DNA of 64,000 nucleotides from a virus. Its lineage: Duplodnaviria; Heunggongvirae; Uroviricota; Caudoviricetes. The translations under genes were made by a program, and so were the position numbers. The DNA lies in the IMG/VR virus record IMGVR_UViG_3300029705_000018, one strand, 5' to 3'. The notes beneath the pieces were generated by a model. That model searched no databases, was not told the DNA's origin, and saw only the letters and a list, made by a program, of their open reading frames with translations. Of the stretch, positions 23,382-48,347 are shown piece after piece. Each line of letters opens with the position of its first letter. Position 1 is the stretch's first letter.

Positions 23382-24062
23382 TCAACCTCCTAGCAGCGGA
23401 TCTGCAAGGTAATCCTTGCAGCGCTTTCCATCTGCACTTGCGGAGCATTGGGGGTTGTGGCCGCAGGTGTCGCATTCATTTTTCTGCTCCTCCTGGAGGC
23501 CAAGCATTTCAATACAAATTTCGGTTTCTTTCTTCATCATTTCAATTGCATCATCTAGTAGAACCGGAGTGCAATTATTGGAGTCCATACCAACATGGAA
23601 CATATAGGGCATACTCATATAGAACTTGTTTTGCTGATGAGTATGACCAAACAGATTGATTAGGTGCATCCGCAGATACGGAGCCTTTTCCAGATTAGAA
23701 GTAATGGTAGGATGATGACTCAAATAGAAGTTATACTTCTTATACTTGATCATTTCAGCCAAACCGAGAACTTCAACACGAGGGAGCTTCTTATAAAGTA
23801 CCAAACGAGTTGCGGTGTCATGATTACCGGGGATAATCTTAATATTACCATTTAGCTCTGCTAAACAGTCCATACCATAAGAATTATCACCGAGCATTAC
23901 ATCACCCAAATGGAATACGGTATCATCGGGACCAACAACCTCATTCCATCGTCTGATAACTTCATTATCATGCTCCATGTAATTCGAGAAACCTCTTGGA
24001 CCCCATAGAAACTCTCGGTCATGACCGAAATGAGTATCAGAAGTCACAAAAATCCTTCCCAT
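23382..24062 (-). CDS. Calcineurin-like metallophosphoesterase
   Basis: 226 aa with DTHFGH, GDVMLGDNS and GNHD motifs. Confidence 0.7.
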   Translation of the reverse strand: MGRIFVTSDTHFGHDREFLWGPRGFSNYMEHDNEVIRRWNEVVGPDDTVFHLGDVMLGDNSYGMDCLAELNGNIKIIPGNHDTATRLVLYKKLPRVEVLGLAEMIKYKKYNFYLSHHPTITSNLEKAPYLRMHLINLFGHTHQQNKFYMSMPYMFHVGMDSNNCTPVLLDDAIEMMKKETEICIEMLGLQEEQKNECDTCGHNPQCSASADGKRCKDYLADPLLGG

Positions 24063-24588
24063 CGGTTTTCACTTCCTTTCTTTCTTCACCAAATTCATTA
24101 ATATGGATAATCATATCATAACCCTCATACAGAGAAGGAGCAATGAAACGCTTATTCATATCACGAATTACAGTCATAGGAACGTCCGCGCGTCCGACGC
24201 GGTTCTTGTTTCTTTCGACCGCCACATCAGTAGGAATTTCAAAAGAAACACCAATTACTTCAGCAGCGTTCTTCAGATTGATATTGCGGAACAGCTCTCT
24301 TCGAGCTTTAGGTGTCAAGTGGGTGGCATCAACATAAACATCAGAATGGAAGTAGTCAGAACTCAACTTGTTGTTGATTTCCTTATAAAACTCCCGCAGA
24401 ACCTGATCTTCGTGAGAGAAATAACTTTCATTCTCTTCAACCAGAGAAAGACGAATCAAATCTCTGGAAATCCAGTTGCCACCGTGAATCGCAATCTGCT
24501 TCTGAATCCAGGAGCTCTTGCCGCATCCACTAGGACCGGACATGACAAATAGACGTTTCCGCTTCATCCTTATACACCCCATTCTCAA
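24037..24588 (-). CDS. P-loop kinase, a candidate polynucleotide kinase
   Basis: 183 aa with Walker A VMSGPSGCGKSS at the N-terminus. It is adjacent to a phosphoesterase. Confidence 0.5.
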   Translation of the reverse strand: MRMGCIRMKRKRLFVMSGPSGCGKSSWIQKQIAIHGGNWISRDLIRLSLVEENESYFSHEDQVLREFYKEINNKLSSDYFHSDVYVDATHLTPKARRELFRNINLKNAAEVIGVSFEIPTDVAVERNKNRVGRADVPMTVIRDMNKRFIAPSLYEGYDMIIHINEFGEERKEVKTDGKDFCDF

Positions 24589-24787
24589 AATTATAACGAA
24601 ATTCTTCTACATCTTCCATTGTCTTACATTCGACATGATTGATTTCCATACGACAGGTCGGACAGTAGAGCTTCTTGCGATGCATCCGTCCATGTTGATG
24701 ACCTTTGAGGCGCATCAGAGGAATACCCTTGTTGCCACAGCTGATACAATAAAAGCTGTGTTCGTTATATGCTTTCTGCTTTGCCAT
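24530..24787 (-). CDS. Small Zn-ribbon protein. The track ORF ends at TAG; a TAG-as-Gln readthrough would add about 30 aa.
   Basis: 85 aa with CISCGN...CPTC. It is preceded by promoter 24818..24846. Confidence 0.3.
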   Translation of the reverse strand: MAKQKAYNEHSFYCISCGNKGIPLMRLKGHQHGRMHRKKLYCPTCRMEINHVECKTMEDVEEFRYNFENGVYKDEAETSICHVRS

Positions 24788-24817
24788 TTCATATTCCTTT
24801 CTTTACCTTACACATAT

Positions 24818-24846
24818 ATTATATCATATTTTTTTATAAAAATCAA
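24818..24846 (-). promoter_or_regulatory. Sigma-70 promoter with an extended -10 element (TTGATT-N17-TGATATAAT)
   Basis: The minus strand reads TTGATTTTTATAAAAAAATATGATATAAT. Confidence 0.65.
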
Positions 24847-24857
24847 TTAAGATCTAT

Positions 24858-25586
24858 TTAACTGAAAAATGAATAACTTTGGTAGGTGTTCAAATCCAAA
24901 AGACAGAACTCACCCATAAAGAATCCACCAGTGTCAATGCACACTTTATGGCCGTCCGCATACCAGATGGGACCGGACTCCCAATCGATATACAAATCTT
25001 CACTGATATAACATACAGGAGTATGACCATGAACAACAAGGAAGTCATCATAACCACCCTCGTTCAGTGGGTCCCAGGGATCGAAATAGTCATCTCTGTT
25101 CCAGATAAGATGCTCATCATCGGGAATGATAAGCTCTTTATCTTCGTCAGCTTCAGGATCACTCCAATAAGGAGTATAACCCGCATGACTCAGCAGAATT
25201 CTCATTCCAAGAGCATTAGTATACTCTACATGGGTAGGCAGGTCACGCAGATACTCATACCACTTCATGCGGTCAGGGTCCCGCTCCCAAGCTTCCATTG
25301 TAGGTCGTCCACCATTGTGAGAAGAAAGAGAATAAGAGTGATAATCCCACATGAAACCATCATCGAGATAATCTTTGATGGCCTTTACGAGCATATCTTC
25401 ATGGTTGCCCTTAATGTAAACAAATCGAGGGTCTGCCGCAACTGCCTTGATACATTCATAGGACTGCAGGCCGCGGTCGCACGCATCGCCCAGAAAATAG
25501 ACCTTATCATCGGGCTTTAAAAATGCTTGAATCTTACGAAACACTTCTAAATGCCCATGCAGGTCGCCCAGCGCATATGTAGCCAT
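24858..25586 (-). CDS. PPP-family Ser/Thr phosphatase-like metallophosphatase (lambda-phosphatase-like)
   Basis: 242 aa with GDLHG, GDACDRG and GNHE motifs. Confidence 0.7.
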   Translation of the reverse strand: MATYALGDLHGHLEVFRKIQAFLKPDDKVYFLGDACDRGLQSYECIKAVAADPRFVYIKGNHEDMLVKAIKDYLDDGFMWDYHSYSLSSHNGGRPTMEAWERDPDRMKWYEYLRDLPTHVEYTNALGMRILLSHAGYTPYWSDPEADEDKELIIPDDEHLIWNRDDYFDPWDPLNEGGYDDFLVVHGHTPVCYISEDLYIDWESGPIWYADGHKVCIDTGGFFMGEFCLLDLNTYQSYSFFS

Positions 25587-25785
25587 TATTCTCCCTCCTT
25601 TATTACTACTGGAATAAGTGTAAACATATAATTCGTAATTCCCATTGCCGCAAATGTTTCATGGGCCTCGTCATGATCTTTTGCGAGAAGGCCATTCGGC
25701 AAAGGAATTCTGTGAATTACATTATCCTTTTCTGTAAATATAAAGCCTTTTACTGCATACATATTTATCACTCACTTTCTATATA

Positions 25786-25814
25786 TATTATAACATATTT
25801 TTTATAAAAAATCA
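25786..25814 (-). promoter_or_regulatory. Sigma-70 promoter, downstream of terminator hairpin 25826..25851
   Basis: TTGATT-N17-TATAAT on the minus strand. The hairpin is tcccccgga ttttatt ccggggga. Confidence 0.6.
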
Positions 25815-25856
25815 AAAAAGAAAAAATCCCCCGGATTTTATTCCGGGGGACTAAAT

Positions 25857-26801
25857 TTAGGGCATCTGAATGACGGGGGTATTATCGCCACCATAGATGG
25901 TAGGCAACTTACCGTCCCACTTTTCGTAGTACATCTTTTCGAGCAGATTACCAGTCAGAGATTCAGCCAGTAATCTGTTAGCTTCAGCCTGGGCCTCAGC
26001 CAACATAATCATAGCCTCAGCTTCGGCTTCAGCCTTAGCGATATTAGCTTCATTCTTATTCTGCTGAATTACCAGTTCCTGCTCGGACGCAAACTTGGCA
26101 TCGATTGCCCTCTGGATTTCGGGGTTCTCATAGGAAATGTCTTCCTTGATACCCAGGACAGTAATGGTAATGCCGTATTCCTTGAAGTAAGGAATTACAT
26201 ATTCCTTGACAGCTTCCATAATCTTGCCCTTGTTGGCGCCCAGCTCAGTAGAAGTGTACTTAGAAGTTTCAATGTTGAAACGGTCTTCAACCAGCTTCTT
26301 AATGTCGTTGTCAATAATCTGCTCCAGAGGAGTGTTATTGTAGCGATACAGGAACTTTACGGCATCAGCTTCCTCGATCATGGTAGTACAGTTCATACCG
26401 ACATAGATGCCGATGTTATCAGAACTACCGCCAAAGATGGCGCGGTTAGAAGAAGAAGCAGTGTCGTCGCCGGAATCCCAAGAGCGAGATACAGGCTTAC
26501 GCTCAACGACAATCAGTTCTGCGGAAGGCTTCCATTCACCAGTCCAGCTCATGCGGCCCGTCTGGACCCAGCGGTGAGGAATCTGGACTTCTTTAGTGGC
26601 AACCTTGTGCTCAGCCAGCAGCTCTTCAGAAGCAAAGGCGGACTGAGAACTGGAATCACCAACCAGAGGGATCAGGAAACCGGTCTGCGAGGGAGAAATC
26701 TTGGCGAACTCAGGCTTGTCATAGGGCTTTCGACAACCAGCCAGGCTCAAACACAGGACCAGCATCAGGACGAGCAGAACCAACTTCTTTACCTTATTCA
26801 T
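25857..26801 (-). CDS. SPFH/band-7 (prohibitin/HflC-like) lipoprotein
   Basis: 314 aa. It has a signal peptide with lipobox LSLAGC, an SPFH core and a C-terminal AEAEAEA coiled-coil. Confidence 0.65.
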   Translation of the reverse strand: MNKVKKLVLLVLMLVLCLSLAGCRKPYDKPEFAKISPSQTGFLIPLVGDSSSQSAFASEELLAEHKVATKEVQIPHRWVQTGRMSWTGEWKPSAELIVVERKPVSRSWDSGDDTASSSNRAIFGGSSDNIGIYVGMNCTTMIEEADAVKFLYRYNNTPLEQIIDNDIKKLVEDRFNIETSKYTSTELGANKGKIMEAVKEYVIPYFKEYGITITVLGIKEDISYENPEIQRAIDAKFASEQELVIQQNKNEANIAKAEAEAEAMIMLAEAQAEANRLLAESLTGNLLEKMYYEKWDGKLPTIYGGDNTPVIQMP

Positions 26802-27081
26802 TTGTAATATTTTCCTTTCTATCGTTGAAATATTTTACGAAATCTACTGCGATGGATGCGCCGCAAATAAGAACAACCAGCACTTCTCCACTTGCGACCA
26901 TATTCTGGACATGACTTGCGGTTTCCATCGCTACAAAACCGAAGTTGTCATTTTCTAGCTGCCCCATTGCGACTTCATTCATCAGGATTGGGGCGAGTCC
27001 TGTGAGTAAGGCGGACAATATAGCACATATCACAATTGCGATAAATGCCTTTTTGACCGCCTTTCTAATTAGCGGTTTCAT
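26794..27081 (-). CDS. Small membrane protein
   Basis: 95 aa with two hydrophobic helices. Promoter 27115..27143 lies upstream. Confidence 0.3.
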   Translation of the reverse strand: MKPLIRKAVKKAFIAIVICAILSALLTGLAPILMNEVAMGQLENDNFGFVAMETASHVQNMVASGEVLVVLICGASIAVDFVKYFNDRKENITNE

Positions 27082-27388
27082 TTCGCTTTCTCCTTTCCTT
27101 TACCTTACATATATATTATATCATATTTTTTTATAAAAATCAAAGAAGATTTTTTGCGTTAGAAGGTTGGGCCTTTACGCTCGTTGAAACAGACATCTCT
27201 TGCTGGGTAAAGGTATTTCTGAAAAACAGGACAAAAATATTTTTCCTCGTAAGTTATATCATAGTATTCTGGATGGTCTTTGCCAGCCCAGTAAAGTTTT
27301 CGTTCTTCCATGATAACTTTTGAGCCATCAAAGAATGGACATTTACGATATAAGCAGGTGTGCCACCAGAATTGTTCATCAAATTCTT

Positions 27389-28105
27389 TCATTTGGCCTC
27401 CTGGATATACTGCCGAATTTCTTCTCGGTAGTTATAGACAAAAGACGGAACTAACTGTTTTACAGCATAGTCGCCACCCTCCATCTGGAATGCCTGCCGC
27501 ACCAGAGTAGCGCTGATACCCTCATATCGGTCCAGGAATTTGAAGCGAAGTAACCATCTTTCATCCTGTGCGAACCAACCGAGCATGATGCGGGGATCGT
27601 CACTGTAGTAGATGGTCATATCAGAATCCTTGGTCTTGCCGAACATCTTGATGTAAAGGTATCGGCCCCAACCGTGACTGTTGTCGCTTTCATCAGTCAT
27701 ATCATCCAAGGGATAGACATGAATGTGTTTCAGATCTTCGGTAGAAAATTGCTCGTGTAAAGCACCTTCCAGGAGCATCAGACGAAAATCAATGGGCAGA
27801 GGATTGCGCTTGGTGCCAGACTTGTCTGCGGAACCCACGAAAATGTGCAGGTCGCAATGATTTGCGGTGCAATCTTCATAAGCCTTCTTCACCATGTTCA
27901 TATGACCATTATGAAAAGGCTGTGCGCGGAACAGAATTACTCCAACCATATAATCCTCCTTACTTGATTTCCAGTTCTCTTGCTTGTTCGCTAGTGATAC
28001 CGAAGTACTCCTCAAACCCCTCAATGTCAGCGGGGTCGCAGGCACCTGAACAGATACATTTTCCGTCATGAAGCACCCAGTACCACATACCATCGGGATA
28101 CTCAA
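27389..28105 (-). CDS. Nicotinamide/nicotinate mononucleotide adenylyltransferase (NadM/NMNAT-like). The true start is probably the internal MVGVILF.
   Basis: The HxGH nucleotidyltransferase motif FRAQPFHNGHMNMV is present with a Rossmann-like core. Confidence 0.65.
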   Translation of the reverse strand: MSIPMVCGTGCFMTENVSVQVPATPLTLRGLRSTSVSLANKQENWKSSKEDYMVGVILFRAQPFHNGHMNMVKKAYEDCTANHCDLHIFVGSADKSGTKRNPLPIDFRLMLLEGALHEQFSTEDLKHIHVYPLDDMTDESDNSHGWGRYLYIKMFGKTKDSDMTIYYSDDPRIMLGWFAQDERWLLRFKFLDRYEGISATLVRQAFQMEGGDYAVKQLVPSFVYNYREEIRQYIQEAK

Positions 28106-28563
28106 CCAGGTGCTCCATAAGATTGAAAAAGTCTTTCAAATTGGAACAGCCATAGACCGCAACCAGACCTTTTCCGGTAAATTCTTCGGTAAAATAAACA
28201 TACGGATCAAGTACTATACGATCCCTAATTTTGTCAGTAAAAGCTACAATGATGGGGGCATCAATATTTACTGTCATTCTTATCAATCCCTCTCTTTAAT
28301 TGTGTATTTATCCCAACCATATTTGGGAATCATTTTCATAAGTGTTATTGAATCTTTTACGCTAAAAAGTTGACAATGCTCGCAAAAAGTCTTATAAAGA
28401 AAATCTTCTGTTAGAGATAAGACCATATCTTGAGCATCTTCCAGAGAGTCACAAAAACATACAATATCATAGCTGTATCGCTCATCACGATAGACTTTTA
28501 ATCTATTTTTCTCGTAAATAGCATACTTGCACATCTTTTCCCCTCTCTTTACTTTGTATATAT

Positions 28564-28592
28564 ATTATATCATATTTTTTTATAAAAATCAA
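28564..28592 (-). promoter_or_regulatory. Sigma-70 promoter with extended -10, fused to terminator hairpin 28596..28618
   Basis: The minus strand reads gagacccctcattttgaggggtctTTTTGATTTTTATAAAAAAATATGATATAAT. The terminator U-tract runs into the -35 element. Confidence 0.7.
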
Positions 28593-28621
28593 AAAGACCC
28601 CTCAAAATGAGGGGTCTCGTA

Positions 28622-29065
28622 TCACAGTTCGGAAATCAATTCTTTACGCTTTTCCATAAGAATTTCACCAAGCCAGTTTTTACCAGCAATTTCTGCACAT
28701 TTGGGACAGAAGCAGGAACCCCAAGTATTGTCATGCCAAGAGTTGCCTTCAATAAGAATGCAATCATTTGTAGCAATCAACTTACTTGCGAGTTTAGGGT
28801 GCGTATCAAATTTCCGCCCTACGCCAACGCGCATAGCAGTGTATTTGACCTGTTCCCAATCCTCACGCAACTGAACTTGACGGCCCATTCGCTTAGCCTT
28901 ACCCGGAGTTGCGGCGGCCGCAATCTTCTTTCTTTCCTCTTGGTCGAGGGTTTTCATTGCCTGAAAGAAGTGTTCGTTGGTAGGATATTCAATTCCATCA
29001 TAGGTAAAAGGGGCATAATAGAAGTTACTTAGAAAAGCGTATTTTCCATCAAATTCAGTAATCAT
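28622..29065 (-). CDS. NADAR (YbiA-like) domain protein, a putative ADP-ribose N-glycosidase
   Basis: 147 aa. FLSNFYYAPFTYDGIEYPTNEHFFQAMK is the NADAR signature. Confidence 0.7.
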   Translation of the reverse strand: MITEFDGKYAFLSNFYYAPFTYDGIEYPTNEHFFQAMKTLDQEERKKIAAAATPGKAKRMGRQVQLREDWEQVKYTAMRVGVGRKFDTHPKLASKLIATNDCILIEGNSWHDNTWGSCFCPKCAEIAGKNWLGEILMEKRKELISEL

Positions 29066-29074
29066 ACTTCCTCC

Positions 29075-29908
29075 TTAGAAATCAATAAACGGGGTATCTT
29101 CATGGAGGACTTCAAAGCAACCTCCATGTCGATTGGAACTACCTTCCCATTTTCTGGTGCGGGCACGAATATAGGGAATATTCAGCATACGCATTTTATG
29201 AGCATTTCGCTCATGACGCTCTTCAATTAGTCGCAGAGTTTCATAAGAAGGCGTCTTATTGTCCAGAAGATAAGCATCGAGGACTTCATAAGTGAAGCCG
29301 AAATTATCTTCATCGGTTTTACCGGTCATGCCATCGCCAGGAGCCTTATGAACCAGCTCAGCAGGCAGATTCAGAGCATCACCGATAGCCAAAATTTCAC
29401 GAACATAAAAGTCGTAAAAAATGGAGAAATCACCGGCCATATCGCCAAACTTAGTAGTATAGCCGACATACATTTCAGATGCATTGCCAGTATGAACCAC
29501 TCGACCGCCGATCAATGCGGCGATGCCATACAGAGTAGTCATGCGCAGGCGAGCAGGAGTATTAGTGTAGAATACATCATTGCCACCACCGAAATACTCT
29601 TCGGGGATTGCTTCCACCAAAGCATCCATGGTGGAGCCAATATTGACGACAGTATAGGGCATATGCAGATGCTCTACGACTTTGTAAGAATCTGCGATGT
29701 CAGCCTGTTCGCCACAGGGCATCAGAACACCGAAGACATTCTCAGAACCCAAAGCGCGACACAACAGGGCAGCCGCAATTGTAGAATCCTTGCCACCGGA
29801 GATGCCGATAACAGCTTTGGTGGTTTTACCACCATTCTTCACGAAATACTTTTTGATTTCGGTAATCATATACTGGATTTCCAGTTCAGCGTCAAATGCT
29901 CTACCCAT
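29075..29908 (-). CDS. nadE: NH3-dependent NAD+ synthetase
   Basis: 277 aa with the PP-loop GISGGKDSTIAAAL. Confidence 0.85.
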   Translation of the reverse strand: MGRAFDAELEIQYMITEIKKYFVKNGGKTTKAVIGISGGKDSTIAAALLCRALGSENVFGVLMPCGEQADIADSYKVVEHLHMPYTVVNIGSTMDALVEAIPEEYFGGGNDVFYTNTPARLRMTTLYGIAALIGGRVVHTGNASEMYVGYTTKFGDMAGDFSIFYDFYVREILAIGDALNLPAELVHKAPGDGMTGKTDEDNFGFTYEVLDAYLLDNKTPSYETLRLIEERHERNAHKMRMLNIPYIRARTRKWEGSSNRHGGCFEVLHEDTPFIDF

Positions 29909-29910
29909 TT

Positions 29911-30417
29911 TTACTCCTCCAAATAGTAGATATATACTTCATAGTCCTCATCAAGGACTTGCTCGATCATTGTCTTGATGACCTCCCAGTTGCCGCCACC
30001 CAGGCCGCAACCAATATGGGATGGGAAGCCAATTGTTGCGCCTTCTGGAACAAATTCTCGGATATGTCCGAGGCAGCTCCAGAAGCCATCATAAGAAGTG
30101 TATCTGCGGCCATCATAACCATAGTGCTCTTGGGCGAACATATTGATTACAGTATGAGTTTTATCCACCTGGACTAGTTGAATATCGCCTAAAAGCACTT
30201 CGCTGGTCTCGGGACAATGTTCAAAACCACCGCAGTTACGCAGAATATTATCCTCAGTATCATTATACTTCTGGATATATTCGCTGTAAACTACGGGCCA
30301 CTTATCTTTAATTGCCTTAGCGATGCCAGAGCCCATGCGACCCTGGCAATTCACCTGATGGCAGTAATAGTCAACATCTGCATCAAGCAGACTACCTTTT
30401 ACATGGTAAATACTCAT
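29911..30417 (-). CDS. Macro domain protein (binds or hydrolyses ADP-ribose or O-acetyl-ADP-ribose)
   Basis: 168 aa. VDYYCHQVNCQGRMGSGIAKAI and GCGLGGGNW are macro-domain motifs. Confidence 0.7.
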   Translation of the reverse strand: MSIYHVKGSLLDADVDYYCHQVNCQGRMGSGIAKAIKDKWPVVYSEYIQKYNDTEDNILRNCGGFEHCPETSEVLLGDIQLVQVDKTHTVINMFAQEHYGYDGRRYTSYDGFWSCLGHIREFVPEGATIGFPSHIGCGLGGGNWEVIKTMIEQVLDEDYEVYIYYLEE

Positions 30418-32708: not shown

Positions 32709-32737
32709 ATTATATCATATTTTTTATAAAAAATCAA
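32709..32737 (-). promoter_or_regulatory. Sigma-70 promoter fused to terminator hairpin 32742..32766
   Basis: TTGATT-N17-TGATATAAT on the minus strand. The hairpin is agtccctctg aacg cagagggact. Confidence 0.65.
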
Positions 32738-32771
32738 AAAAGTCCCTCTGAACGCAGAGGGACTCTCAATA

Positions 32772-35148: not shown

Positions 35149-35160
35149 TGGCTATCCTCC

Positions 35161-35769: not shown

Positions 35770-35794
35770 TTCCTTCCTTATTCTTTATACATAT

Positions 35795-35823
35795 ATTATA
35801 ACATATTTTTTTTGAAAAATCAA
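35795..35823 (-). promoter_or_regulatory. Sigma-70 promoter fused to terminator hairpin 35827..35849
   Basis: TTGATT-N17-TATAAT on the minus strand. The hairpin is aggctctct tgttc agagagcct. Confidence 0.6.
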
Positions 35824-35855
35824 AAAAGGCTCTCTTGTTCAGAGAGCCTTTTCTT

Positions 35856-36506: not shown

Positions 36507-36759
36507 ATCTCTTATTCTTTACATATATATTATAACATATTTTTTGTAAAAAATCAAAAAGGACACTTTTTAGGTGTCCTTTGGGAATAATAAACGGGTT
36601 CCGCAACGGAAACAATAACGCTTCTCATCGTCCCATATGACAGAGCCACCGGGCAGACAGTCAGGTTCAAGCATTCCGCAATTAGAACATATTCGATTAC
36701 CTTCTGGAGTCCATTTCCACACTCCCACTTTAGCGGGAGGTGGAGGAGGAGGTGGAGCT

Positions 36760-37416: not shown

Positions 37417-37709
37417 TGTGCTACCTCCTTACTGAGCAACGATATGGGGTAAATCAATTAGAGCATTTTCGCCGTCTCCGACCTTTATCCACACAGCATC
37501 TAATTGGCGAATCCGAAATACATATATAGAGCCTTTTGGCACGATGAATTTCGGGTAGTTGTATAGATAGGTGGCATACTCCTCCATCAGGTCGAAAACC
37601 ATATACTCGGGGGATTGTAGTAGATTCATTTTTCTTCACTCTTCCTCTTGGTACTGTGCCTGTGGGGAGGGGATGGGCGGCCGCCCAGGCAGCGACCGCC
37701 AGTGCTGGA

Positions 37710-39173
37710 TTACTCGCCTGCTTCATCTAAGCCATCAGCCTCTTCCATATCAGGTGCTTCGGCAGTGTCTTTGATAATGCCTTCCAAAACCTTGAAATTG
37801 AAGTTCTTATGCTTATAAGCAGTAAAAGTAGGACGATTGATTACACGAACTACGACACCCTCACGGATATGAGTGGGGTCGATAGGCTCGGGACCATCGA
37901 AGAACTGTTCAGCCTTTTCCAGTACGAACTGGCCTGCGTCAGTCAGCTCGCAAGAAGTTCCGGTGAAAACTTCCTCGTCGGGGATAAAACCGGCCCAGTG
38001 GACAGGCACAGTCTTGACGCCCATGTACATACAACGGTAACGCATAAAGTCGGGAGTGTACTCCACAACCTGGCCATCTTCGTTGGTCATGGTCATACGG
38101 TATACGTAGATATCGCTCTGAGGCTTGGACACGCTGAATGCGGTATCGGGGTTAGAAGGATCGGCAACTCCAGCAACCGCAACTCCCTTTGGATCGCAGC
38201 CGTAAGAGAAGGTAGTGACCTTACCATACTGCTTTACGAAAGCCTTATCCTTCAACTTCTCATTGGAGCAGGTGCTCATGATAGGAGTACCATCATGAGT
38301 AAAGCCAACGATTTCGTAGTAGATAGTTTCACCCTTCCACAGCTTACCCTTGAAGAAGTCATGGTACTGCTTACGGAACTCATTAGAGCCGTAGAAACCA
38401 CCATCGAAGCTATCCAGGATAGTACGACGAGTGCCGGTTACGATGTCGTAATCAAACACAGGAGTGCAGTGCTTTTCCGCAAACTTCTGAGCCTTTGCCG
38501 CAGGCAGAATCTTACCCAAGAACTTGTGGAAAATGTTATTGGTAGTATAAGAATGTCCATCAAAAGACTGGACAAATGCAGTACGGCCAGAAGTGCCATG
38601 TAGCTTACGGGTGATTTCGATGTAGTCACCGGGCTTGAATTCGCTCAGATGGTAAACCAACTGCTCAGTATCCTTGTGTTCGAAGAAAGTAGGTGCCATA
38701 TTCTTACGCTTTAGCTTCTGGCCAGCGTGACGCTTCACACCATTACCCTTATTCTTGCCACGAGGGATATATTTCTGACAGATTTCATGACCGTTTAGCA
38801 CGGTGATAGGAGTGCCAGGAGTCAGTTCATCCAGCTTAGCGCCGGTGTAAGCCAGACACTCGATAGGCAGGAACAGACCATCGGACTGCTCACCGCGAAG
38901 CTTGATTGCGCGCACATTGCGCTTGGCGGGGTCTAGGTATCCGCCGGAGATATTCTTGCCGAACTCATCATAGACTGCCAGCAAGCCGTTCTTTTCACAG
39001 AACTCCATAGACAACTGACCGTCTACGGGGAAGTAAACACCCAGCTGTCCTTCAAAATACTTATCCTTTGCAACACAGACGGTGTTCTCAAAGCAGGTTG
39101 CTAGAACCAGATTATCTGCGTTGCCGTGCTCACGCACATTCATTAGATTGGTGATGTATCCACAGTAAGACAT
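37710..39173 (-). CDS. ATP-dependent RNA ligase (Rnl2-like nucleotidyltransferase)
   Basis: 487 aa with motif I ITRKLHGTSGR (KxHGT, as in T4 Rnl2) and downstream NTase motifs. Confidence 0.5.
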   Translation of the reverse strand: MSYCGYITNLMNVREHGNADNLVLATCFENTVCVAKDKYFEGQLGVYFPVDGQLSMEFCEKNGLLAVYDEFGKNISGGYLDPAKRNVRAIKLRGEQSDGLFLPIECLAYTGAKLDELTPGTPITVLNGHEICQKYIPRGKNKGNGVKRHAGQKLKRKNMAPTFFEHKDTEQLVYHLSEFKPGDYIEITRKLHGTSGRTAFVQSFDGHSYTTNNIFHKFLGKILPAAKAQKFAEKHCTPVFDYDIVTGTRRTILDSFDGGFYGSNEFRKQYHDFFKGKLWKGETIYYEIVGFTHDGTPIMSTCSNEKLKDKAFVKQYGKVTTFSYGCDPKGVAVAGVADPSNPDTAFSVSKPQSDIYVYRMTMTNEDGQVVEYTPDFMRYRCMYMGVKTVPVHWAGFIPDEEVFTGTSCELTDAGQFVLEKAEQFFDGPEPIDPTHIREGVVVRVINRPTFTAYKHKNFNFKVLEGIIKDTAEAPDMEEADGLDEAGE

Positions 39174-39460
39174 ACATTACTCTCCTTTCTTCTGTTCTCT
39201 GTATGTTTTTTCACGGAGGCAAATGATAGGCTGTTTGCCCTCTCTGCCCCAATGCTCTTCAATGCGGGAATAACCCTTACAGTAATACGGGGACATATCG
39301 GAAATGATCCCGCACTCGTCGGGTTCAAGATGGGGTCCCGCAAGTTCCACAACCTCAATAGCGAGGTCTCGTTCTTTGTCGATATCATAGACGAACACCG
39401 GCACATGAGGCGGATGCTCCTGAAGCTTGGCGATTAGCTCGCCCACAGTTATGGTTTTCA

Positions 39461-40372
39461 TTACTTTTCACCACTTTCACTCTTGGCAACCATTGTGATT
39501 GCGCCCTCGGGATTATATTCCCAATAGCAGTTATATCGGCACTTACCGGTCTGAGGAGCAGACTGGATTGCGCTGATAACCTTCTTCATCTGCTCTTCCT
39601 TCTTGGGGGAGATATTGCGAGCGATATACTTGACAATCCACAGAGCAGCGATGTTCCAGTCAGGGAAATACAGGGTTGCACCATTGTCCTTATCGATAGC
39701 CTTGACTACCCAGTTATCCTTATTTGCGCCGGTGGTTGCCGCCCACTTCTTTTCACGCTCCCACTGAATGAATAGGGGATGAACCTTGCTTCCGCGAGGG
39801 AAGGGCTTGGGCTGAGAGGGCATGGACAGGATAGTTTCCTTATCCTCCGGCTTACACTTCTCATAAAGATGCTCAACAACGGTGCAGAGCATCCGAGCGT
39901 CTTCCAGAGCATCGTGCTTCTGGACCAGATCCTTTTCATCCTGGACCAGCATATAGACTTTCCGCAGAGCCAGATCATTCTTGGCAACGAAGAACTGTTT
40001 CACAGTAGAAGCATAGTCGATCAAATTACCGGCGAGTGCCTGTGCAAAGATGATAGCCTTGGGGATGGTCATTTTGCGAGCAGTCGCGTGGAGGAAAGAG
40101 CTGTCGCAGTTGCCATAAACATAATACTCGGGAGGCTCTTCATCAAAGTTAGAAACGACGAAATCGTAAAAATCCAGAAATGCCTGATCGGCGCTGGGAG
40201 CATTTTCCAGCATTTCATTGGTAATGCCAGTCAGCTCGGTGATAAACTTATCAACCTTTTTCTTACCGGGATGAACCAGAGTTGAGAATGTGCTACCATT
40301 TTCGGCTACACAACCAATGCTGATAATGCGGTTAGAGAAACGGGTTGCTTCAAAGTCCATGAAACATTTCAT
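39461..40372 (-). CDS. DEDDh 3'-5' exonuclease (DnaQ-like) with a C-terminal extension
   Basis: 303 aa with Exo I FMDFEAT, Exo II YGNCDSSFL and Exo III HDALEDARML. Confidence 0.7.
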   Translation of the reverse strand: MKCFMDFEATRFSNRIISIGCVAENGSTFSTLVHPGKKKVDKFITELTGITNEMLENAPSADQAFLDFYDFVVSNFDEEPPEYYVYGNCDSSFLHATARKMTIPKAIIFAQALAGNLIDYASTVKQFFVAKNDLALRKVYMLVQDEKDLVQKHDALEDARMLCTVVEHLYEKCKPEDKETILSMPSQPKPFPRGSKVHPLFIQWEREKKWAATTGANKDNWVVKAIDKDNGATLYFPDWNIAALWIVKYIARNISPKKEEQMKKVISAIQSAPQTGKCRYNCYWEYNPEGAITMVAKSESGEK

Positions 40373-40411
40373 TTTTTATCAATTCCTTTCTTTTCTTACC
40401 TTTGTATATAT

Positions 40412-40440
40412 ATTATATCATATTTTTTTATAAAAATCAA
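40412..40440 (-). promoter_or_regulatory. Sigma-70 promoter with extended -10
   Basis: TTGATT-N17-TGATATAAT on the minus strand. Confidence 0.65.
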
Positions 40441-40556
40441 AAAGAAGGTTTTTGGTTAGAAAATTTCTAAATCGCTTTTAGATTTGGGGTGTCGGTTGTC
40501 TCAGTGTCAGCGGCCGGAGCAGATAAAAGAAAAATGGCTCCCGAAGGAGCCATTTA

Positions 40557-40916
40557 TTATCCAAAAATCTTATTGAAATAATTACCAATCATTTCCTCGG
40601 TAATGCCCATTGCATAAGGCTTTGCGACAATTTGACCGTTTTCATATATGGCACCATAAATTGCGCCGTCCTTATAAATCTGGTAAGGGGTTAGATAACC
40701 ACCATGTCCAGCAGTTTCAATATAGAGTACAACTCTGGTATTGATATCATACACGACATAATTGCCATATTCAATTTCCTCAATTATGGCAAAACGATTA
40801 TCAATAACTTCAACCTCTGCGCCATCAACAACTTGAGTGGCAGAACAAGCAGCCAAAGTGCCAATACAGAGTACGATAATCAAAATTATCAGCCAACAAA
40901 TAGTATATCTTTTCAT
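40557..40916 (-). CDS. Secreted or membrane protein
   Basis: 119 aa with a signal or transmembrane segment ICWLIILIIVLCIGTLAAC. A terminator hairpin lies at 40536..40556. Confidence 0.3.
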   Translation of the reverse strand: MKRYTICWLIILIIVLCIGTLAACSATQVVDGAEVEVIDNRFAIIEEIEYGNYVVYDINTRVVLYIETAGHGGYLTPYQIYKDGAIYGAIYENGQIVAKPYAMGITEEMIGNYFNKIFG

Positions 40917-40993
40917 GTTATCTCCTTATCCTGCGCAGGCGGCCATCAAAACTAGGCCGATAAAAATCCACGGAATTATTGCCCACCATTCCA

Positions 40994-41899
40994 TTATGCC
41001 ATAGCCTCCCTCAGCATTCTCGCACGAGCGGGATGCCGCAACTTGCGAATTGCCTTATTTTCGATCTGACGAATACGTTCCTTGGTAATGCCGTAGACCT
41101 TACCAACTTCTTCTAGGGTCATTGCCTTCTCGTGGTCAATGCCGAAACGCATCTTCATAATCTCACCTTCACGAGTGGGAAGAGTATCCAGAACCGCACG
41201 GACAATCTGGCTGTTAGCTTCCTTGACAAGGTTGCCGTAGCCACTTTCAGCATTATGGTCTGCTACCAGGTCACCAACACTGGTTTCACCGTCTTCATCA
41301 ACGGCCACATCCAGAGAAGATACTGCCTGAGAAATGTCCAGAATGGTCTGAACCTTTTCCAAATCTTCATTCAGATACTTGGCGATTTCTTCATCGGTCG
41401 GCTGACGATGATTTTTCAGAAGTAGTTCATTGGTTGCCTTGCGGATTTTGCCCAGAAGCTCAACCATATTTGCGGGAATGCGAATGGTGCGAGACTGGTC
41501 ACCGAGCGCACGAGAAATAGACTGGCGAATCCAGTAGGTAGCATAGGTAGAGAATCTCCAACCCTTAGTACCATCATACTTCTGAGCGGCCTTTATCAGA
41601 CCGAGATTGCCCTCCTGGATGAGATCAAGCAGGGGCAGACCGCAACCATAATATCTCTTTGCGATGGGAACAACCAGAAGTAGATTACAGCTTACCAGTT
41701 CATTGATTGCGTCCTGGTCGCCCTTGAGCGCCTTTACGCTCAATTCTTTCTCCTGGTCAAAATTCAAACGGGGGTGATTACCGATAGACTTCAGATAGGC
41801 TTTTACACCATCGAGGACTACCACATCGGCAACAGTAGCCTCGAAATCATTGAGAGCTTCCTGGGCCTCATCTTCCATAATAATTACATTTTCTTCCAT
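40994..41899 (-). CDS. Sigma-70-family RNA polymerase sigma factor (regions 2 to 4)
   Basis: 301 aa. Region 2 reads RYYGCGLPLLDLIQEGNLGLIKAAQKYDGTKGWRFSTYATYWIRQSISRAL. Region 4 reads MTLEEVGKVYGITKERIRQIENKAIRKLRHP. Confidence 0.85.
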   Translation of the reverse strand: MEENVIIMEDEAQEALNDFEATVADVVVLDGVKAYLKSIGNHPRLNFDQEKELSVKALKGDQDAINELVSCNLLLVVPIAKRYYGCGLPLLDLIQEGNLGLIKAAQKYDGTKGWRFSTYATYWIRQSISRALGDQSRTIRIPANMVELLGKIRKATNELLLKNHRQPTDEEIAKYLNEDLEKVQTILDISQAVSSLDVAVDEDGETSVGDLVADHNAESGYGNLVKEANSQIVRAVLDTLPTREGEIMKMRFGIDHEKAMTLEEVGKVYGITKERIRQIENKAIRKLRHPARARMLREAMA

Positions 41900-41937
41900 T
41901 ATTATGCTCCTCCCTTACTTTCTCATTTTCTATATAT

Positions 41938-41966
41938 ATTATATCATATTTTTTTATAAAAATCAA
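41938..41966 (-). promoter_or_regulatory. Sigma-70 promoter with extended -10 for the sigma factor gene, fused to terminator hairpin 41969..41993
   Basis: TTGATT-N17-TGATATAAT on the minus strand. The hairpin is aagcccttcc gaat gggaagggctt. Confidence 0.65.
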
Positions 41967-42008
41967 ATAAGCCCTTCCGAATGGGAAGGGCTTATATTTT
42001 ATCGGGAC

Positions 42009-42563
42009 TTAGCCTTTTGCGGAAGTGTCAATGGTGAGAAGCATCAAAGGCTTACCATCAAAAGAAATCCAGGGAGCAACTTCAACTTCAACAATAGGAT
42101 TATCGCTTCGCAAAGCGAAGGAAGTCATAACTTCAATGGTAGCACCAGGACGAATCTCAGTCATAGCATGATCATACTGCTTTGCAATGTCATCATCTAA
42201 AATCAAAATTGCAGGATCTAGACCAATACCATCCTGGAAAGCACTGACGCCATAAGTAGTAGCGAACATGGTGGTCTCTTCAGTGGTGTTAGTCCAAATT
42301 AGATATACGACCAGAGCAGGATTGCCTTCATAGTCTTCAACGATATCAAAACCGGTAATGTCAAAGTCCAGAATCGGTGCTTCGGGAGAAGGAATGAACT
42401 CATTGGTTGTTTCGAGCGGCAGAGTAGTTTCTACAACCTCAACATACTCAGTAGTAGGCGGAGCAGTCATGGTTTCAGTTACGGTGATCGTTTCATCACC
42501 GCCGCAGGCAACCAGAGAGAATACCATACACAGGGCCAGGATAAATGCGAAAATCTTTTTCAT
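42009..42563 (-). CDS. Lipoprotein, paralogue A
   Basis: 184 aa with signal and lipobox MKKIFAFILALCMVFSLVACGG. Confidence 0.45.
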   Translation of the reverse strand: MKKIFAFILALCMVFSLVACGGDETITVTETMTAPPTTEYVEVVETTLPLETTNEFIPSPEAPILDFDITGFDIVEDYEGNPALVVYLIWTNTTEETTMFATTYGVSAFQDGIGLDPAILILDDDIAKQYDHAMTEIRPGATIEVMTSFALRSDNPIVEVEVAPWISFDGKPLMLLTIDTSAKG

Positions 42564-42581
42564 ATCTTTTACCTCTTTTAT

Positions 42582-42854
42582 TTATTCAGTGACATCCTGG
42601 AAGCCACGCTCCCATTCAGCCATAGTTTTATCATATTCAGCGAAAATTTCTGTCTTGGTTCGCTTTAGCGCTTTACGAGCTTCCAACCAATAGCCAAGCT
42701 GAGTCCAGGCATTATAAGAATCACAGCCAAAAGCCATCGCAGCGATTACTACGGCCCAGTATTCTGCGCGCGTCCACTGGGCGACTGCACATACAGCCAT
42801 CAGAATTGCGAGCAGTGCCCACAGAATTGCAAAAATCAGATTGCGAGTTTTCAT
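42582..42854 (-). CDS. Small membrane protein
   Basis: 90 aa with two transmembrane helices. Confidence 0.3.
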   Translation of the reverse strand: MKTRNLIFAILWALLAILMAVCAVAQWTRAEYWAVVIAAMAFGCDSYNAWTQLGYWLEARKALKRTKTEIFAEYDKTMAEWERGFQDVTE

Positions 42855-42866
42855 TTCATTTCCTCC

Positions 42867-43253
42867 TTAGAAACATTTATCACAAGAGTCATATCCTGCG
42901 GCGATTGTTTCAGATAAAAGCATGGGGATATCTCCCCAACGGCAAGATTCAGTATGGTATTTTTCTCCAGATTTAGTGACATATACAATAGGGTCAATTA
43001 CCTCTTCCTGATCCTCAGGAGGGAAAGTCTCTTCATCGGGAATTGTCGCCTCGGGAGAGGGAACAAATCCAACTGTTTCTTCTGTCGGAGCTTCTGTTAT
43101 GGGAGGTAAAGTCTCTTCTACTACAGGTTCAGTAACCGCATATGCGATAGCTTCTGTTTCAGTCGGCTCAATTTCGATCTCAGGCTCGCCGCCGCAAGCA
43201 ACCAGACTGAAAATCATACATAGCGCGAGGATAAAAGCGAAAATCTTTTTCAT
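42867..43253 (-). CDS. Lipoprotein, paralogue B. Its signal peptide is near-identical to that of 42009..42563.
   Basis: 128 aa starting MKKIFAFILALCMIFSLVACGG, with a C-terminal Cys cluster CRW...CDKCF. Confidence 0.45.
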   Translation of the reverse strand: MKKIFAFILALCMIFSLVACGGEPEIEIEPTETEAIAYAVTEPVVEETLPPITEAPTEETVGFVPSPEATIPDEETFPPEDQEEVIDPIVYVTKSGEKYHTESCRWGDIPMLLSETIAAGYDSCDKCF

Positions 43254-43646
43254 TTACTCATCTACTCCTTCTGGAAATGTATAGTCTTCGGGGTGAATAG
43301 GTTCACCTTCGGGAATACCTTTATGTAATGTTTCATTATAGACGAGGGAGTATTTCACACTACCATCATCATATTCGTGAGTAATTAGGTAACAACGAAT
43401 AGTGCTACCTAAATTATCTTTGTATTGTTCGTGTACGCCCCATTCGTCAATCCATCGAGTTTTACAAGGGCCATATGCTACCCATACATAACGATAACCC
43501 CAATTATCGATGGAGCAGTCATATACGATAGCATCAACCGCTTCAGCAGTTGTATTTACTACATTTGCGGTCCGTAGTTCACAACCGCATAGAGTCAATA
43601 GTAGACAGAGCGCCAGTAGGAGAGTGATTAGTCTTTTCATAATCAC
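43254..43646 (-). CDS. Lipoprotein
   Basis: 130 aa with signal MIMKRLITLLLALCLLLTLCGC. Confidence 0.4.
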   Translation of the reverse strand: MIMKRLITLLLALCLLLTLCGCELRTANVVNTTAEAVDAIVYDCSIDNWGYRYVWVAYGPCKTRWIDEWGVHEQYKDNLGSTIRCYLITHEYDDGSVKYSLVYNETLHKGIPEGEPIHPEDYTFPEGVDE

Positions 43647-44425
43647 TCACCCACATAAATCACGTCGTCAACATACTTGCGGTCCTCGCCTTTGAGAATG
43701 GGCATTTCATAGTCAACGCCGATGTCGCGTCTCCATGCGGTGCCACGCTTCCAGCGAGTGGGGTAATTACCCCAGATAATTCCTTTATCCACTTCCAGCA
43801 TGGTCTTGATGTTCTGGCAGCACATACCCTGCAGGACAGCATGAGAATAATTTGCCTGACCGACCATCTGAATGGAGTTGCGGGTGGCGTCCAACTGGCG
43901 CCAATAGACCAAGTTACAGGCTTCTTCCTTGGGAATGTTGAAGCATCGGGAGTCAAACATTGCACCTTTTTCAGCGGCTCGAGAATAAGTATCAATCAGC
44001 TTGATCTCTTCATCAGTAATGAAGATTGGTTCAGTGCTGTCGATGTGCTTCTGAACTTCCTCCTGGAAATATTTATTGAAAGCCATGGTTGCCATAGAAG
44101 CAGAGATGGAACACATCTTCTGAATTTCATAATCAAACCAGGCGGAGCTGGTGAGTTTCTGGTAGTCAATCAGCAGGAGAGTGATTTCATCGGACTGCTG
44201 ATAAGCAAAAACACATCCTTGAATATTTTTCGCTAAATATTCCATAGTTCTTACCATAGCATTTCCTAATACCTCATCAAAAGGTTTTTGAAATCCTCTG
44301 GTAAAAGTATGAAATGCTTTTCCATCTATACGAATTGCCACAGGCATCCGTCTTACGAGGCGATGTTTAGGCACCGCCTCGTAATAAGTTTTCATTCTAT
44401 TTCCGAGATCATCATGAACTGCCAT
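43643..44425 (-). CDS. Thg1-like protein (tRNA-His guanylyltransferase / 3'-5' polymerase family)
   Basis: 260 aa. RMPVAIRIDGKAFHTFTRGFQKPFD is the Thg1/TLP N-terminal palm signature. Confidence 0.7.
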   Translation of the reverse strand: MAVHDDLGNRMKTYYEAVPKHRLVRRMPVAIRIDGKAFHTFTRGFQKPFDEVLGNAMVRTMEYLAKNIQGCVFAYQQSDEITLLLIDYQKLTSSAWFDYEIQKMCSISASMATMAFNKYFQEEVQKHIDSTEPIFITDEEIKLIDTYSRAAEKGAMFDSRCFNIPKEEACNLVYWRQLDATRNSIQMVGQANYSHAVLQGMCCQNIKTMLEVDKGIIWGNYPTRWKRGTAWRRDIGVDYEMPILKGEDRKYVDDVIYVGE

Positions 44426-44438
44426 AATTAATTCTCCT

Positions 44439-47481: not shown

Positions 47482-47484
47482 ATA

Positions 47485-48324: not shown

Positions 48325-48347
48325 AAAAGGGAGCCTTGATGGCTCCC

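Follow-up and report, generated by a model that had tools for sequence, protein, structure and literature searches.

The 64,000-nucleotide (nt) stretch of DNA considered here in its entirety, hereafter the window, derives from a virus of the Caudoviricetes (IMG/VR record IMGVR_UViG_3300029705_000018) and encodes an ATP-dependent RNA ligase, a polynucleotide kinase-like protein, several metallophosphoesterases (MPEs), a 3'-5' exonuclease, an RlaP-like nucleotidyltransferase (NTase) and a Thg1-like protein (TLP). These genes are probably the pieces of an RNA break-repair cassette that insertions have pulled apart and whose products act on RNA cut by host ribonucleases. The initial annotation had drawn attention to four open reading frames (ORFs), for the ligase, the kinase, one MPE and the TLP, within the 21 kilobases (kb) from 23382 to 44425. 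All four are found exactly where it put them, on the minus strand, and belong to the superfamilies it named, with family matches too strong to be due to chance. It overlooked RlaP, the most constant partner of the ligase, as well as the DEDD exonuclease and a cRec protein.

The ligase gene (37710..39173, minus strand) specifies 487 amino acids (aa) predicted to make up an N-terminal OB domain, an NTase domain with insertions and a short acidic tail. Its product matches phrog_968 ("RNA ligase") at 1e-59, scores slightly below threshold against both Pfam RNA_ligase and the PHA02142 OB-fold domain, and reaches 25.8 bits with PF21189, a family recorded for nearly all of its close homologues. The sole NCBIfam match, to the DraRnl family TIGR02306 RNA_lig_DRB0094 (4e-15), spans residues 9-203, from the N-terminal domain to motif I, and at 55 bits lies far under the equivalog cutoff of 151. 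When PDB sequences are searched with phmmer and hmmsearch, the ligase matches the OB domain of NgrRnl, over residues 32-102, and the PTFxxxxD...KL(H/D)G segment only. Foldseek with the AlphaFold2 (AF2) model of the ligase returns NgrRnl in the top 13 positions at ~1e-12 over the full length, and T4 Rnl2 at 1e-4 over the NTase core only. Because the model is of modest quality (pLDDT 60) and superposes poorly on NgrRnl (TM-scores 0.27-0.39), the fold assignment is taken from this ranking together with the sequence evidence. Sequence patterns place motif I at K190 (KLHGT), motif III at E287, motif IV at E438 and motif V at K454/K456, all invariant in 28 homologues; motif I alone is aligned directly to NgrRnl, the others being assigned by pattern. 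The residues essential in NgrRnl are K170, E227, E312 and K326 (PMC7261155). Some 30 residues follow motif V, acidic and disordered (pLDDT <30), and there is no C-terminal domain.

The Rnl5 class is defined by an N-terminal OB domain joined to an NTase domain, the C-terminal appendage being absent (PMC4408790). With its OB domain, its Lys/Glu/Glu/Lys NTase motifs and its missing C-terminal domain, the window ligase is, as judged from its sequence, an Rnl5-type enzyme like DraRnl of Deinococcus and NgrRnl of Naegleria. The initial annotation had called it Rnl2-like. It is indeed an ATP-dependent RNA ligase, distinct from the NAD-dependent DNA ligase of the phage and grouping with neither DNA ligases nor capping enzymes, but the Rnl2 class, which comprises T4 Rnl2 and the kinetoplastid RELs, is ruled out by the OB domain at the N-terminus, by the lack of a domain at the other end and by the confinement of the T4 Rnl2 match to the NTase core; the resemblance to Rnl2 is limited to the KxHG spelling of motif I. 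Besides architecture and counterparts of the four essential residues (Lys in motif I, Glu in III and IV, Lys in V), the ligase shares with DraRnl a DEDD-type exonuclease in its operon, which for DraRnl is DR_B0095. It differs from both characterized enzymes in length (487 versus ~340 aa), with ~40 and ~65 extra residues between motifs I and III and between motifs III and IV, and from NgrRnl in reading KLHG, as Rnl2 does, rather than KLDG in motif I and in having Gln as the counterpart of R149. Because the phage has a separate NAD-dependent DNA ligase of its own (LigA, 8970..10958), the RNA ligase is not needed for replication.

The kinase ORF (24037..24588, minus strand) is recognized by AAA_33 (2.5e-15) and by phrog_505, "polynucleotide kinase" (5e-18). 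Its start is more likely the ATG at 24567, giving 176 aa, because an AGG lies just upstream and homologues measure 167-176 aa. The resulting stand-alone protein (24037..24567) carries the Walker A motif GPSGCGKS, D36/R39 and R119/R123/R126, and the Walker A Lys, D36, R39 and R123 (the Arg of an RNKNRxGR segment) are invariant in an alignment that includes distant phage PNKs. The best solved relatives in a single-sequence search of the PDB are the CthPnkp kinase domain and T4 Pnk. A family profile, which included three annotated phage PNKs, retrieves T4 Pnk at 2e-21, CthPnkp at 8e-21, PSTK at 1e-20, Pnkp1 at 7e-17 and mammalian PNKP at 1e-6, with adenylate kinases appearing merely at ~1e-3; the match to TIGR04075 bacter_Pnkp stands at 5e-9. 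These profile matches bear out the proposal that the protein is a Pnk and not a nucleoside or nucleotide kinase, and it can be assigned, on sequence grounds, to the polynucleotide 5'-kinase clade. Only 40 relatives are found in a large protein database, all of them stand-alone and in one clade, and a single-sequence search of IMG/VR yields none. The first gene of the kinase unit encodes an 85-aa Zn-ribbon protein (24530..24787, minus strand; CxxC...CxxC; phrog_1257 at 7e-9), whose end overlaps the kinase start by 38 nt and which adjoins the kinase in 18 of the 23 relatives having both.

Comparative genomics supports the view that these genes form a functional module. The linkage set comprises 114 loci, 80 from IMG/VR and 34 from bacterial genomes or metagenome-assembled genomes (MAGs), with ligases 44-69% identical to that of the window; 8-10 kb flanks were searched with the window's proteins, and lineages are clusters at 80% ligase identity (n=55). 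Of the 114 loci, 89-90 have a Pnk-type kinase close to the ligase, as do 45 of the 55 lineages (11/12 when clustered at 65% identity), and an RlaP-like NTase lies within 10 kb in 81 loci (38/55 lineages). The TLP and the DEDD exonuclease are found near the ligase in 26 and 22 loci, respectively, each in 17 of 55 lineages. RlaP is on the strand of the ligase in all 65 IMG/VR loci that have it, and the common layouts are ligase-RlaP and ligase-RlaP-PNK. Five relatives (L121, L134, L151, L155 and L163) contain one contiguous run of RlaP, the phrog_1649 MPE, the DEDD exonuclease, the ligase, a lambda-type MPE, the Zn-ribbon protein, the kinase and the phrog_547 MPE. In three others (L107, L111 and L103) the TLP lies within the cassette, L107 packing ligase, TLP, RlaP and kinase into 5 kb.

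Similar associations occur in distant, unrelated phages. In Bacillus phage vB_BcoS-136 a kinase-HD fusion lies 5 nt downstream of the ligase, Microbacterium phage Necrophoxinus has the order PNK, ligase and DnaQ-like exonuclease, Gordonia phage DatBoi has an NTase and then the ligase, Streptomyces phage Enygma has an RNA ligase and then a PNK among tRNA genes, and Fusobacterium phage FNU3 encodes a 738-aa fusion of kinase, GDxxDRG/GNHE-type MPE and ligase. In 53 of the 80 IMG/VR loci (27/38 lineages) the ligase has arrays of tRNA genes within 10 kb, all on the same strand and most of them upstream, a distribution that favors a tRNA-related role.

The RlaP gene of the window (48635..49519, minus strand) lies 9.5 kb from the ligase and appears to encode a divergent RNA-ligase-associated Pol-beta (RlaP) 3'-nucleotidyltransferase with a GS...DVD motif. 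This copy scores 18.6 bits against a cutoff of 23 for Pfam PF10127, which 17 of 24 homologues (38-64% identity) do match, the best at 3.8e-23; protein and profile searches of PDB sequences gave no match for it. RlaP adds one or two nucleoside monophosphates to the 3' end of damaged RNA, and among cellular macromolecules it acted only on RNA (PMC12776372). Its unit also encodes a protein with a cyclic-phosphate-processing receiver (cRec) domain (50560..50877, minus strand; PF20274 at 8.5e-19), which is found near the ligase in 21 of 80 loci and is a candidate opener of 2',3'-cyclic phosphates, the function proposed for this domain (PMC7824862).

Another accessory enzyme is the DEDD (RNase_T/DnaQ-like) 3'-5' exonuclease (39461..40372, minus strand; Pfam RNase_T at 8e-14), the first gene of the ligase unit. 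Wherever it was detected, in 18 of the 80 IMG/VR loci and 22 of 114 overall, it lies directly upstream of the ligase (18-990 nt), and DraRnl likewise shares an operon with the DEDDh-like DR_B0095 (PMC5397189). Between exonuclease and ligase the window has a 94-aa ORF (39177..39461, minus strand) that has no Pfam match; ORFs of 90-94 aa occupy the equivalent position in relatives L001-L003 and L008.

For the healing of 3' ends, the window offers several MPEs. The initial annotation had paired the kinase with an adjacent MPE (23382..24062, minus strand; Metallophos_2 at 1e-8, phrog_547 at 2e-45) as a split Pnk. This binuclear enzyme has DxH, GD, GNHD and GHTH motifs, is translationally coupled to the kinase by an ATG that overlaps the kinase stop by 26 nt, adjoins the kinase in 23 of 26 relatives and is a candidate 3'-end healing enzyme. 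A second MPE, of the lambda-phosphatase/ApaH (PPP) type (24858..25586, minus strand; GDLHG, GDACDRG, GNHE), is the last gene of the unit preceding the kinase. It matches lambda phosphatase in the PDB at 1e-7, ApaH at 5e-14, bacter_Pnkp (TIGR04075) at positions 222-270 and the fused Pnkp-like family phrog_8238 at positions 176-327, and it shares the GDxHG/GDxxDRG/GNHE signature with the kinase-MPE-ligase fusion of FNU3. The phosphatase of CthPnkp is a member of the lambda-phosphatase family and, like lambda phosphatase itself, a 2',3'-cyclic phosphodiesterase (PMC2190708). The lambda-type MPE is thus a closer counterpart of the Pnkp phosphatase domain than the MPE coupled to the kinase.

The split-Pnk idea can be examined in the 90 loci that have a kinase near the ligase. 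Among the 57 fused kinases, which carry a C-terminal extension of 138-246 aa with a detectable HD domain in 47, none has a phrog_547 MPE adjacent and one has a lambda-type MPE within 2.5 kb. Among the 33 stand-alone kinases, the corresponding numbers are 19 and 23 (Fisher, fused versus stand-alone, 6e-11 for the phrog_547 MPE and 1e-12 for the lambda-type MPE, values that overstate independence because the loci are related). Such strict complementarity is the pattern expected if MPEs had replaced the HD phosphoesterase, and it supports a split Pnk. The split-Pnk proposal therefore gains from the complementarity (19/33 versus 0/57) and from the translational coupling, but the MPE chosen for it belongs to a generic family and the second one is closer to Pnkp. 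A match of either MPE to the C-terminal half of the Bacillus-phage PNK-HD fusion was also considered, and neither matches.

Two further MPEs lie at higher coordinates. A phrog_1649 member (46627..47481, minus strand; Pfam Metallophos at 1e-10) accompanies the cassette in 29 of 80 loci, where it usually sits between RlaP and the exonuclease. A second phrog_547 member (45278..46024, minus strand; 1.5e-21) is a paralogue of the kinase-coupled MPE (4e-7) and belongs to the unit of the TLP, from which an HNH endonuclease gene (44439..45176) separates it; its family adjoins the TLP in all five ligase loci having both. The metal-binding motifs (DxH, GD, GNH(D/E), H and GHxH) are all present in the MPEs at 23382..24062, 24858..25586 and 45278..46024. 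In all, four MPE genes lie within 24 kb of the window.

The cassette genes of the window are not contiguous. The initial annotation had treated the 21-kb span as one RNA-repair locus; instead it consists of several transcription units and is mostly filled by NAD+ metabolism genes. The layout corresponds to the relatives' contiguous cassette with two insertions: a NAD+ block separates the ligase from the lambda-type MPE, and the sigma-factor and TLP units separate the phrog_1649 MPE from the exonuclease. A 29-nt element, TTGATTTTTATAAAAAAATATGATATAAT, constitutes a near-consensus sigma-70-type promoter with an extended -10 and occurs in 12 copies at <=3 mismatches, with 0 expected by chance; a thirteenth copy lies at 36529..36557. 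The sites, on the minus strand, lie at 24818, 27115, 28564, 32709, 35795, 36529, 40412, 41938, 46321, 48296, 51462, 54075 and 59309 (range 24818..59337). All 13 are intergenic, many directly follow a terminator hairpin, and together they look like a single regulatory class for the whole accessory region. Because all pieces of the cassette sit behind copies of this one promoter, they are probably expressed together.

Four of these units concern us here. An exact copy of the element at 40412..40440 (minus strand; TTGATT, 17 nt, TATAAT, TG extension) precedes the unit of DEDD exonuclease, 94-aa ORF, ligase, small ORF and HD_4 protein, bounded by terminators at 40532-40555 upstream and 36558-36582 at its end. 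Another exact copy (24818..24846, minus strand) precedes the Zn-ribbon protein, the kinase, the MPE and an 89-aa ORF. The unit behind the promoter at 51490 encodes a 186-aa ORF, cRec, small ORFs and RlaP. The copy at 46321..46349 (minus strand) leads into an 82-aa ORF, the second phrog_547 MPE, the HNH endonuclease, the TLP, two lipoproteins, a 90-aa ORF and a DUF5067 protein, with a terminator at 41967-41995.

The last gene of the ligase unit (36760..37416, minus strand; Pfam HD_4 at 8e-9, TIGR00691 spoT_relA at 4e-15) encodes a SpoT/RelA-type hydrolase that stands alone and resembles small alarmone hydrolases. By analogy with toxSAS/CapRel systems it could presumably hydrolyze (p)ppGpp or strip a 3'-pyrophosphate from tRNA. 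As a core repair member it was rejected: it lies near the ligase in just 1 of 80 relatives and shows no similarity to the HD part of the PNK-HD fusion in the Bacillus phage, so it probably falls outside the core set.

Between the ligase and the lambda-type MPE, three units are devoted to NAD+ and ADP-ribose metabolism. This 12-kb salvage/ADP-ribose block (window 27389..35769) encodes isochorismatase/nicotinamidase-like, PRPP synthetase, YqeY, Sir2, NAMPT, Macro, NAD synthetase, NADAR and NMNAT-like proteins, plausibly counters NAD+-depleting defenses and is absent or shorter in several relatives (e.g. L121, L008). Its proximity raises the question of whether the P-loop protein is a small-molecule kinase of the NAD+ pathway, such as a nicotinamide riboside kinase, or a protein or tRNA-aminoacyl kinase, with the MPEs serving as nucleotide, Ap4A or protein phosphatases. 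The kinase gene does adjoin the block, Pfam gives it only the generic AAA_33, the score of Pnk is equalled by that of PSTK, a kinase of this clade linked to tRNA, and the best scores of the lambda-type MPE are with ApaH and PrpA/B. We nevertheless regard this explanation as very unlikely: the profile scores of T4 Pnk, CthPnkp and Pnkp1 (1e-17 to 1e-21) stand far from those of adenylate kinases, the general-base Asp and the phosphate-binding Arg residues of Pnk are invariant, and the Pfam search found no NadR/NRK family match. In addition, the kinase lies beside the RNA ligase even in relatives without the NAD+ block, and its distant homologues are PNKs that adjoin RNA ligases.

The repair cassette may be pictured as follows. 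Cleavage of RNA by a host ribonuclease would leave a 2',3'-cyclic phosphate and a 5'-OH. The stand-alone Pnk-clade kinase would phosphorylate the 5'-OH, while one or both binuclear MPEs would open the cyclic phosphate and remove the 3' phosphate, replacing the kinase-fused HD domain of sister lineages and perhaps helped by cRec. The DEDD exonuclease and RlaP could then trim the 3' side and re-add one or two nucleotides, after which a 3'-OH/5'-phosphate nick in a base-paired setting would be left for the Rnl5-type ligase to seal. We infer this order of steps, as well as tRNA substrates and an anti-defense purpose.

Several observations, beside the modest structural model of the ligase, weigh against this picture. 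The window and ~10 kb past its low-coordinate end lack tRNA genes, and no target of a host nuclease is visible in the window. Characterized Rnl5 ligases seal duplex nicks and not anticodon-loop breaks (PMC4408790), and what is known of the family's physiology is limited to radiation resistance in Deinococcus (PMC5397189). The linkage counts come largely from related phages and are not phylogenetically independent, and unrelated genes (SPFH, PIN-PhoH, MVP-like) accompany the cassette likewise. Two MPEs compete for the phosphatase role, and of the 1,505 phage records with a phrog_547 member most have no kinase of this type that could be detected. As for the TLP, its unit in the window also encodes lipoproteins, and the ligase is present in only 4 of 80 TLP-centered loci.

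Because characterized Rnl5 ligases act on duplex nicks and their known physiology is radiation resistance, the main rival explanation is that the set repairs nicks in DNA or RNA:DNA hybrids (ribonucleotide or 5'-OH/3'-phosphate nicks, primer or patch processing) in the service of genome maintenance, as has been proposed for DraRnl. Indeed, Rnl5 needs RNA only on the 3'-OH side and accepts DNA as the 5'-phosphate and template strands (PMC4408790), and loss of DraRnl, whose operon partner is DEDDh-like, sensitizes Deinococcus to radiation and delays genome reassembly (PMC5397189). Pnkp and HD-Pnk enzymes heal DNA ends too, the window exonuclease scores against DnaQ/PolC-exonuclease models, and the cassette, in a window without tRNAs, lies beside replication genes for topoisomerase, LigA, RNase H, DnaB and DnaE. 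What makes a DNA-directed role unlikely is the company that the ligase keeps elsewhere. RlaP, with its reported confinement to RNA (PMC12776372), is found at 81 of the 114 loci; 27 of 38 lineages have tRNA arrays next to the ligase, and distant phages have the ligase-PNK pair inside tRNA gene regions; moreover, the phage has a dedicated DNA ligase. The RNA break-repair cassette remains the favored reading.

The place of the TLP (43643..44425, minus strand) in this cassette is a separate matter. Its identification as a Thg1-like protein is secure (Pfam Thg1 at 9e-30, 103.7 bits against a cutoff of 29.2; phrog_4717 at 1.5e-81), and it is closest to the bacterial type, matching BtTLP of Bacillus thuringiensis (4kgk) at 2e-52 over its full length, an archaeal TLP at 2e-9 and eukaryotic Thg1 at ~2e-4. 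Residues R32, D34, D79 and E80 correspond to R28, D30, D75 and E76 of BtTLP, whose roles have been described (PMC3701042), and the protein is therefore a predicted template-dependent 3'-5' nucleotidyltransferase of bacterial type. The window TLP differs from BtTLP (PDB 4KGK), with which it shares these catalytic R/D/D/E residues, in being phage-encoded and in a ~30-residue insertion (124-154). Phage Thg1 proteins had been described as uncommon. This is true of their frequency (163 of 50,697 phage records), but they are no novelty, with relatives of 55-74% identity in 350 IMG/VR contigs. No neighbor family is common to more than 25 of 80 TLP loci, and no conserved neighbor was found across them. 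Where the initial annotation envisaged one concerted end-healing system, the linkage of ligase and kinase supports it in part, but the TLP is only loosely associated (26 of 114 ligase loci; 4 of 80 TLP loci) and is a looser, optional companion of the cassette, not a fixed part.

It might even be argued that the four genes are independent accessories without a concerted pathway, the TLP serving tRNA maturation through G-1 addition to a tRNA-His, encoded by phage or host, or 5' editing. Consistent with this, the genes occupy three transcription units 6-15 kb apart with NAD+ genes interleaved, the TLP has no conserved neighbor, 76 of 80 TLP loci have no ligase, and Staphylococcus phage PMBT8 has a TLP with neither ligase nor kinase. 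A case where the TLP could act in tRNA-His maturation is FNU3, which has a TLP and a tRNA-His(GTG) (L178:38498-38569), with an encoded G at -1 and A, not C, at position 73, beside the kinase-MPE-ligase fusion. On the other hand, PMBT8 is without any tRNA gene, so its TLP cannot mature a phage tRNA, and of the 295 tRNAs that relatives have in the neighborhood of ligase or TLP genes, only 1 is tRNA-His. Bacterial-type TLPs in vitro prefer 5'-truncated tRNAs of many kinds (PMC3701042). Since, in addition, many relatives have ligase, RlaP and kinase side by side, and some have the TLP inside the cassette, independence of the four genes seems improbable.

In the context of the repair cassette, the TLP could rebuild 5'-truncated acceptor stems. 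A more ambitious version of the pathway, which we advance only tentatively and consider doubtful as a whole, would restore RNAs that have lost nucleotides, with RlaP and the exonuclease on the 3' side, the TLP on 5'-truncated acceptor stems and the ligase on stem nicks. If true, it would provide the first defined in vivo role for bacterial-type TLPs and for Rnl5, namely counter-defense against tRNA-targeting nucleases, and an RNA-healing function for the widespread phage family phrog_547. The genes that follow the TLP (42009..43646) encode small proteins with lipoprotein signal peptides (lipobox ending in C, residues 20-22) and the DUF5067 protein; these are probably cell-surface proteins unrelated to RNA repair.

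Phage RNA repair is a recognized counter to tRNA-cutting defenses, demonstrated experimentally mainly for T4. The T4 system, in which Pnk and Rnl1 (and Rnl2) counter the anticodon nuclease PrrC, shares with the window its heal-and-seal logic and a homologous kinase domain; the phosphatase of T4 Pnk is, however, of the HAD type and T4 Rnl1 acts specifically on tRNA anticodon loops, while no Rnl1, Rnl2 or HAD phosphatase was found in the window. A closer precedent is the survey of Iyer, Anantharaman, Krishnan, Burroughs and Aravind (2021), which describes RNA-repair sets of jumbo phages with ligase, PNK, phosphoesterases (calcineurin-like, HD), cRec, RlaP and sporadic Thg1, read as counter-defense, beside NAD+ salvage and Macro/NADAR/SIR2 genes (PMC7824862). 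The gene inventory of the window is the same. Most phage ligases in that survey are placed in Rnl1/Rnl2, with "rare divergent versions" besides, whereas the window ligase is of Rnl5 type, and in the window insertions interrupt the cassette and a kinase without fusion partner stands between two MPEs. The big-phage RNA-repair counter-defense toolkit is thus already known (PMC7824862), and the current picture of phage RNA repair is unchanged, with a variant filled in. What is specific to this case is that the Rnl5-type ligase carries insertions, that the kinase is unfused and has MPE partners, that the Rnl5-DEDD exonuclease pairing recurs and that the layout is split.

Among fused systems, Clostridium thermocellum Pnkp/Hen1 and the FNU3 fusion likewise combine a Pnk-clade kinase, a lambda-phosphatase-type MPE and a ligase, and the window kinase and lambda-type MPE match consecutive segments of such fusions. 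Unlike Pnkp, the window has three separate genes and an Rnl5 ligase in place of the Pnkp C-terminal adenylyltransferase, the MPE coupled to the kinase is the phrog_547 one, and a Hen1 methyltransferase was not found among the annotated window genes. The bacterial single-chain Pnkp class does not apply, since the TIGR04075 scores are 34.8 and 17.5 bits against a cutoff of 750 and the genes are separate. Among the genes scanned, Tpt1/KptA, RtcB, Hen1, a CCA-adding enzyme and a 2H phosphoesterase were not detected. In clusters of HD-Pnk and ligase (Runella slithyformis, the Deinococcus LigB-PARG-DR_B0098 kinase operon and vB_BcoS-136), the ligase also abuts a kinase/phosphoesterase; the vB_BcoS-136 ligase is 46% identical to that of the window and its kinase domain is homologous. 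The window kinase differs in having no HD domain and MPEs in adjacent positions, the two arrangements being strictly complementary over the 90 loci.

The locus and its ~340 IMG/VR relatives thus point to abundant large phages, probably of gut Clostridia, with an Rnl5-RlaP-Pnk cassette usually beside tRNA arrays. These phages are a natural system for learning on which substrates Rnl5 ligases, RlaP and bacterial-type TLPs act in vivo. The complementarity of HD and MPE offers a lead, open to testing, on the function of a phosphoesterase family that ~1,500 sequenced phages encode.

The source phage itself is ~180-220 kb in size and probably infects gut Clostridia. Metagenome contigs of 183 and 220 kb encode proteins identical to those of the window in the same gene order, and no close DNA relative emerged when 8 kb of the window was compared by megablast with 50,697 phage records. 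The host is inferred from related ligases (44-62% identity) that reside on phage-sized contigs in isolates or MAGs of gut Clostridia, among them Hominicoprocola, Dysosmobacter, Roseburia, Acetatifactor and Acutalibacteraceae. Its replication genes belong to the SPbeta/Tsamsa type (DnaE-type polymerase, YorF, YorH, gyrase-like topoisomerase and NAD-dependent DNA ligase), and the sequence beyond the low-coordinate end of the window adds only more replication genes.

ARAGORN and Rfam at gathering thresholds found no tRNAs or other known RNAs in the 64-kb window. In the near-identical 183-kb contig, a tRNA with a CUA anticodon, of the amber-suppressor type, is present (L001:236-310) where the window has a terminator hairpin (~54116..54190). 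CUA-anticodon-like tRNAs also occur in 11 other related loci, which hints at TAG recoding in part of the phage group.

Homing endonuclease genes lie between accessory genes at 44439..45176, 47593..48084 and 7321..7869 (two HNH, one GIY-YIG). Downstream of the kinase unit are a PIN-PhoH fusion and two SPFH/Band-7 proteins (19230..20516; 21363..22895; 25857..26801), and PIN-PhoH and one SPFH gene accompany the cassette in relatives. Finally, the 833-aa protein encoded at 51528..54029 has no PHROG match but matches the Major Vault Protein (MVP) shoulder domain (8e-22) and, above threshold, a Vault repeat (1.5e-8); its gene lies near the ligase in 25 of 80 relatives, and an MVP-like protein is unusual in a phage.

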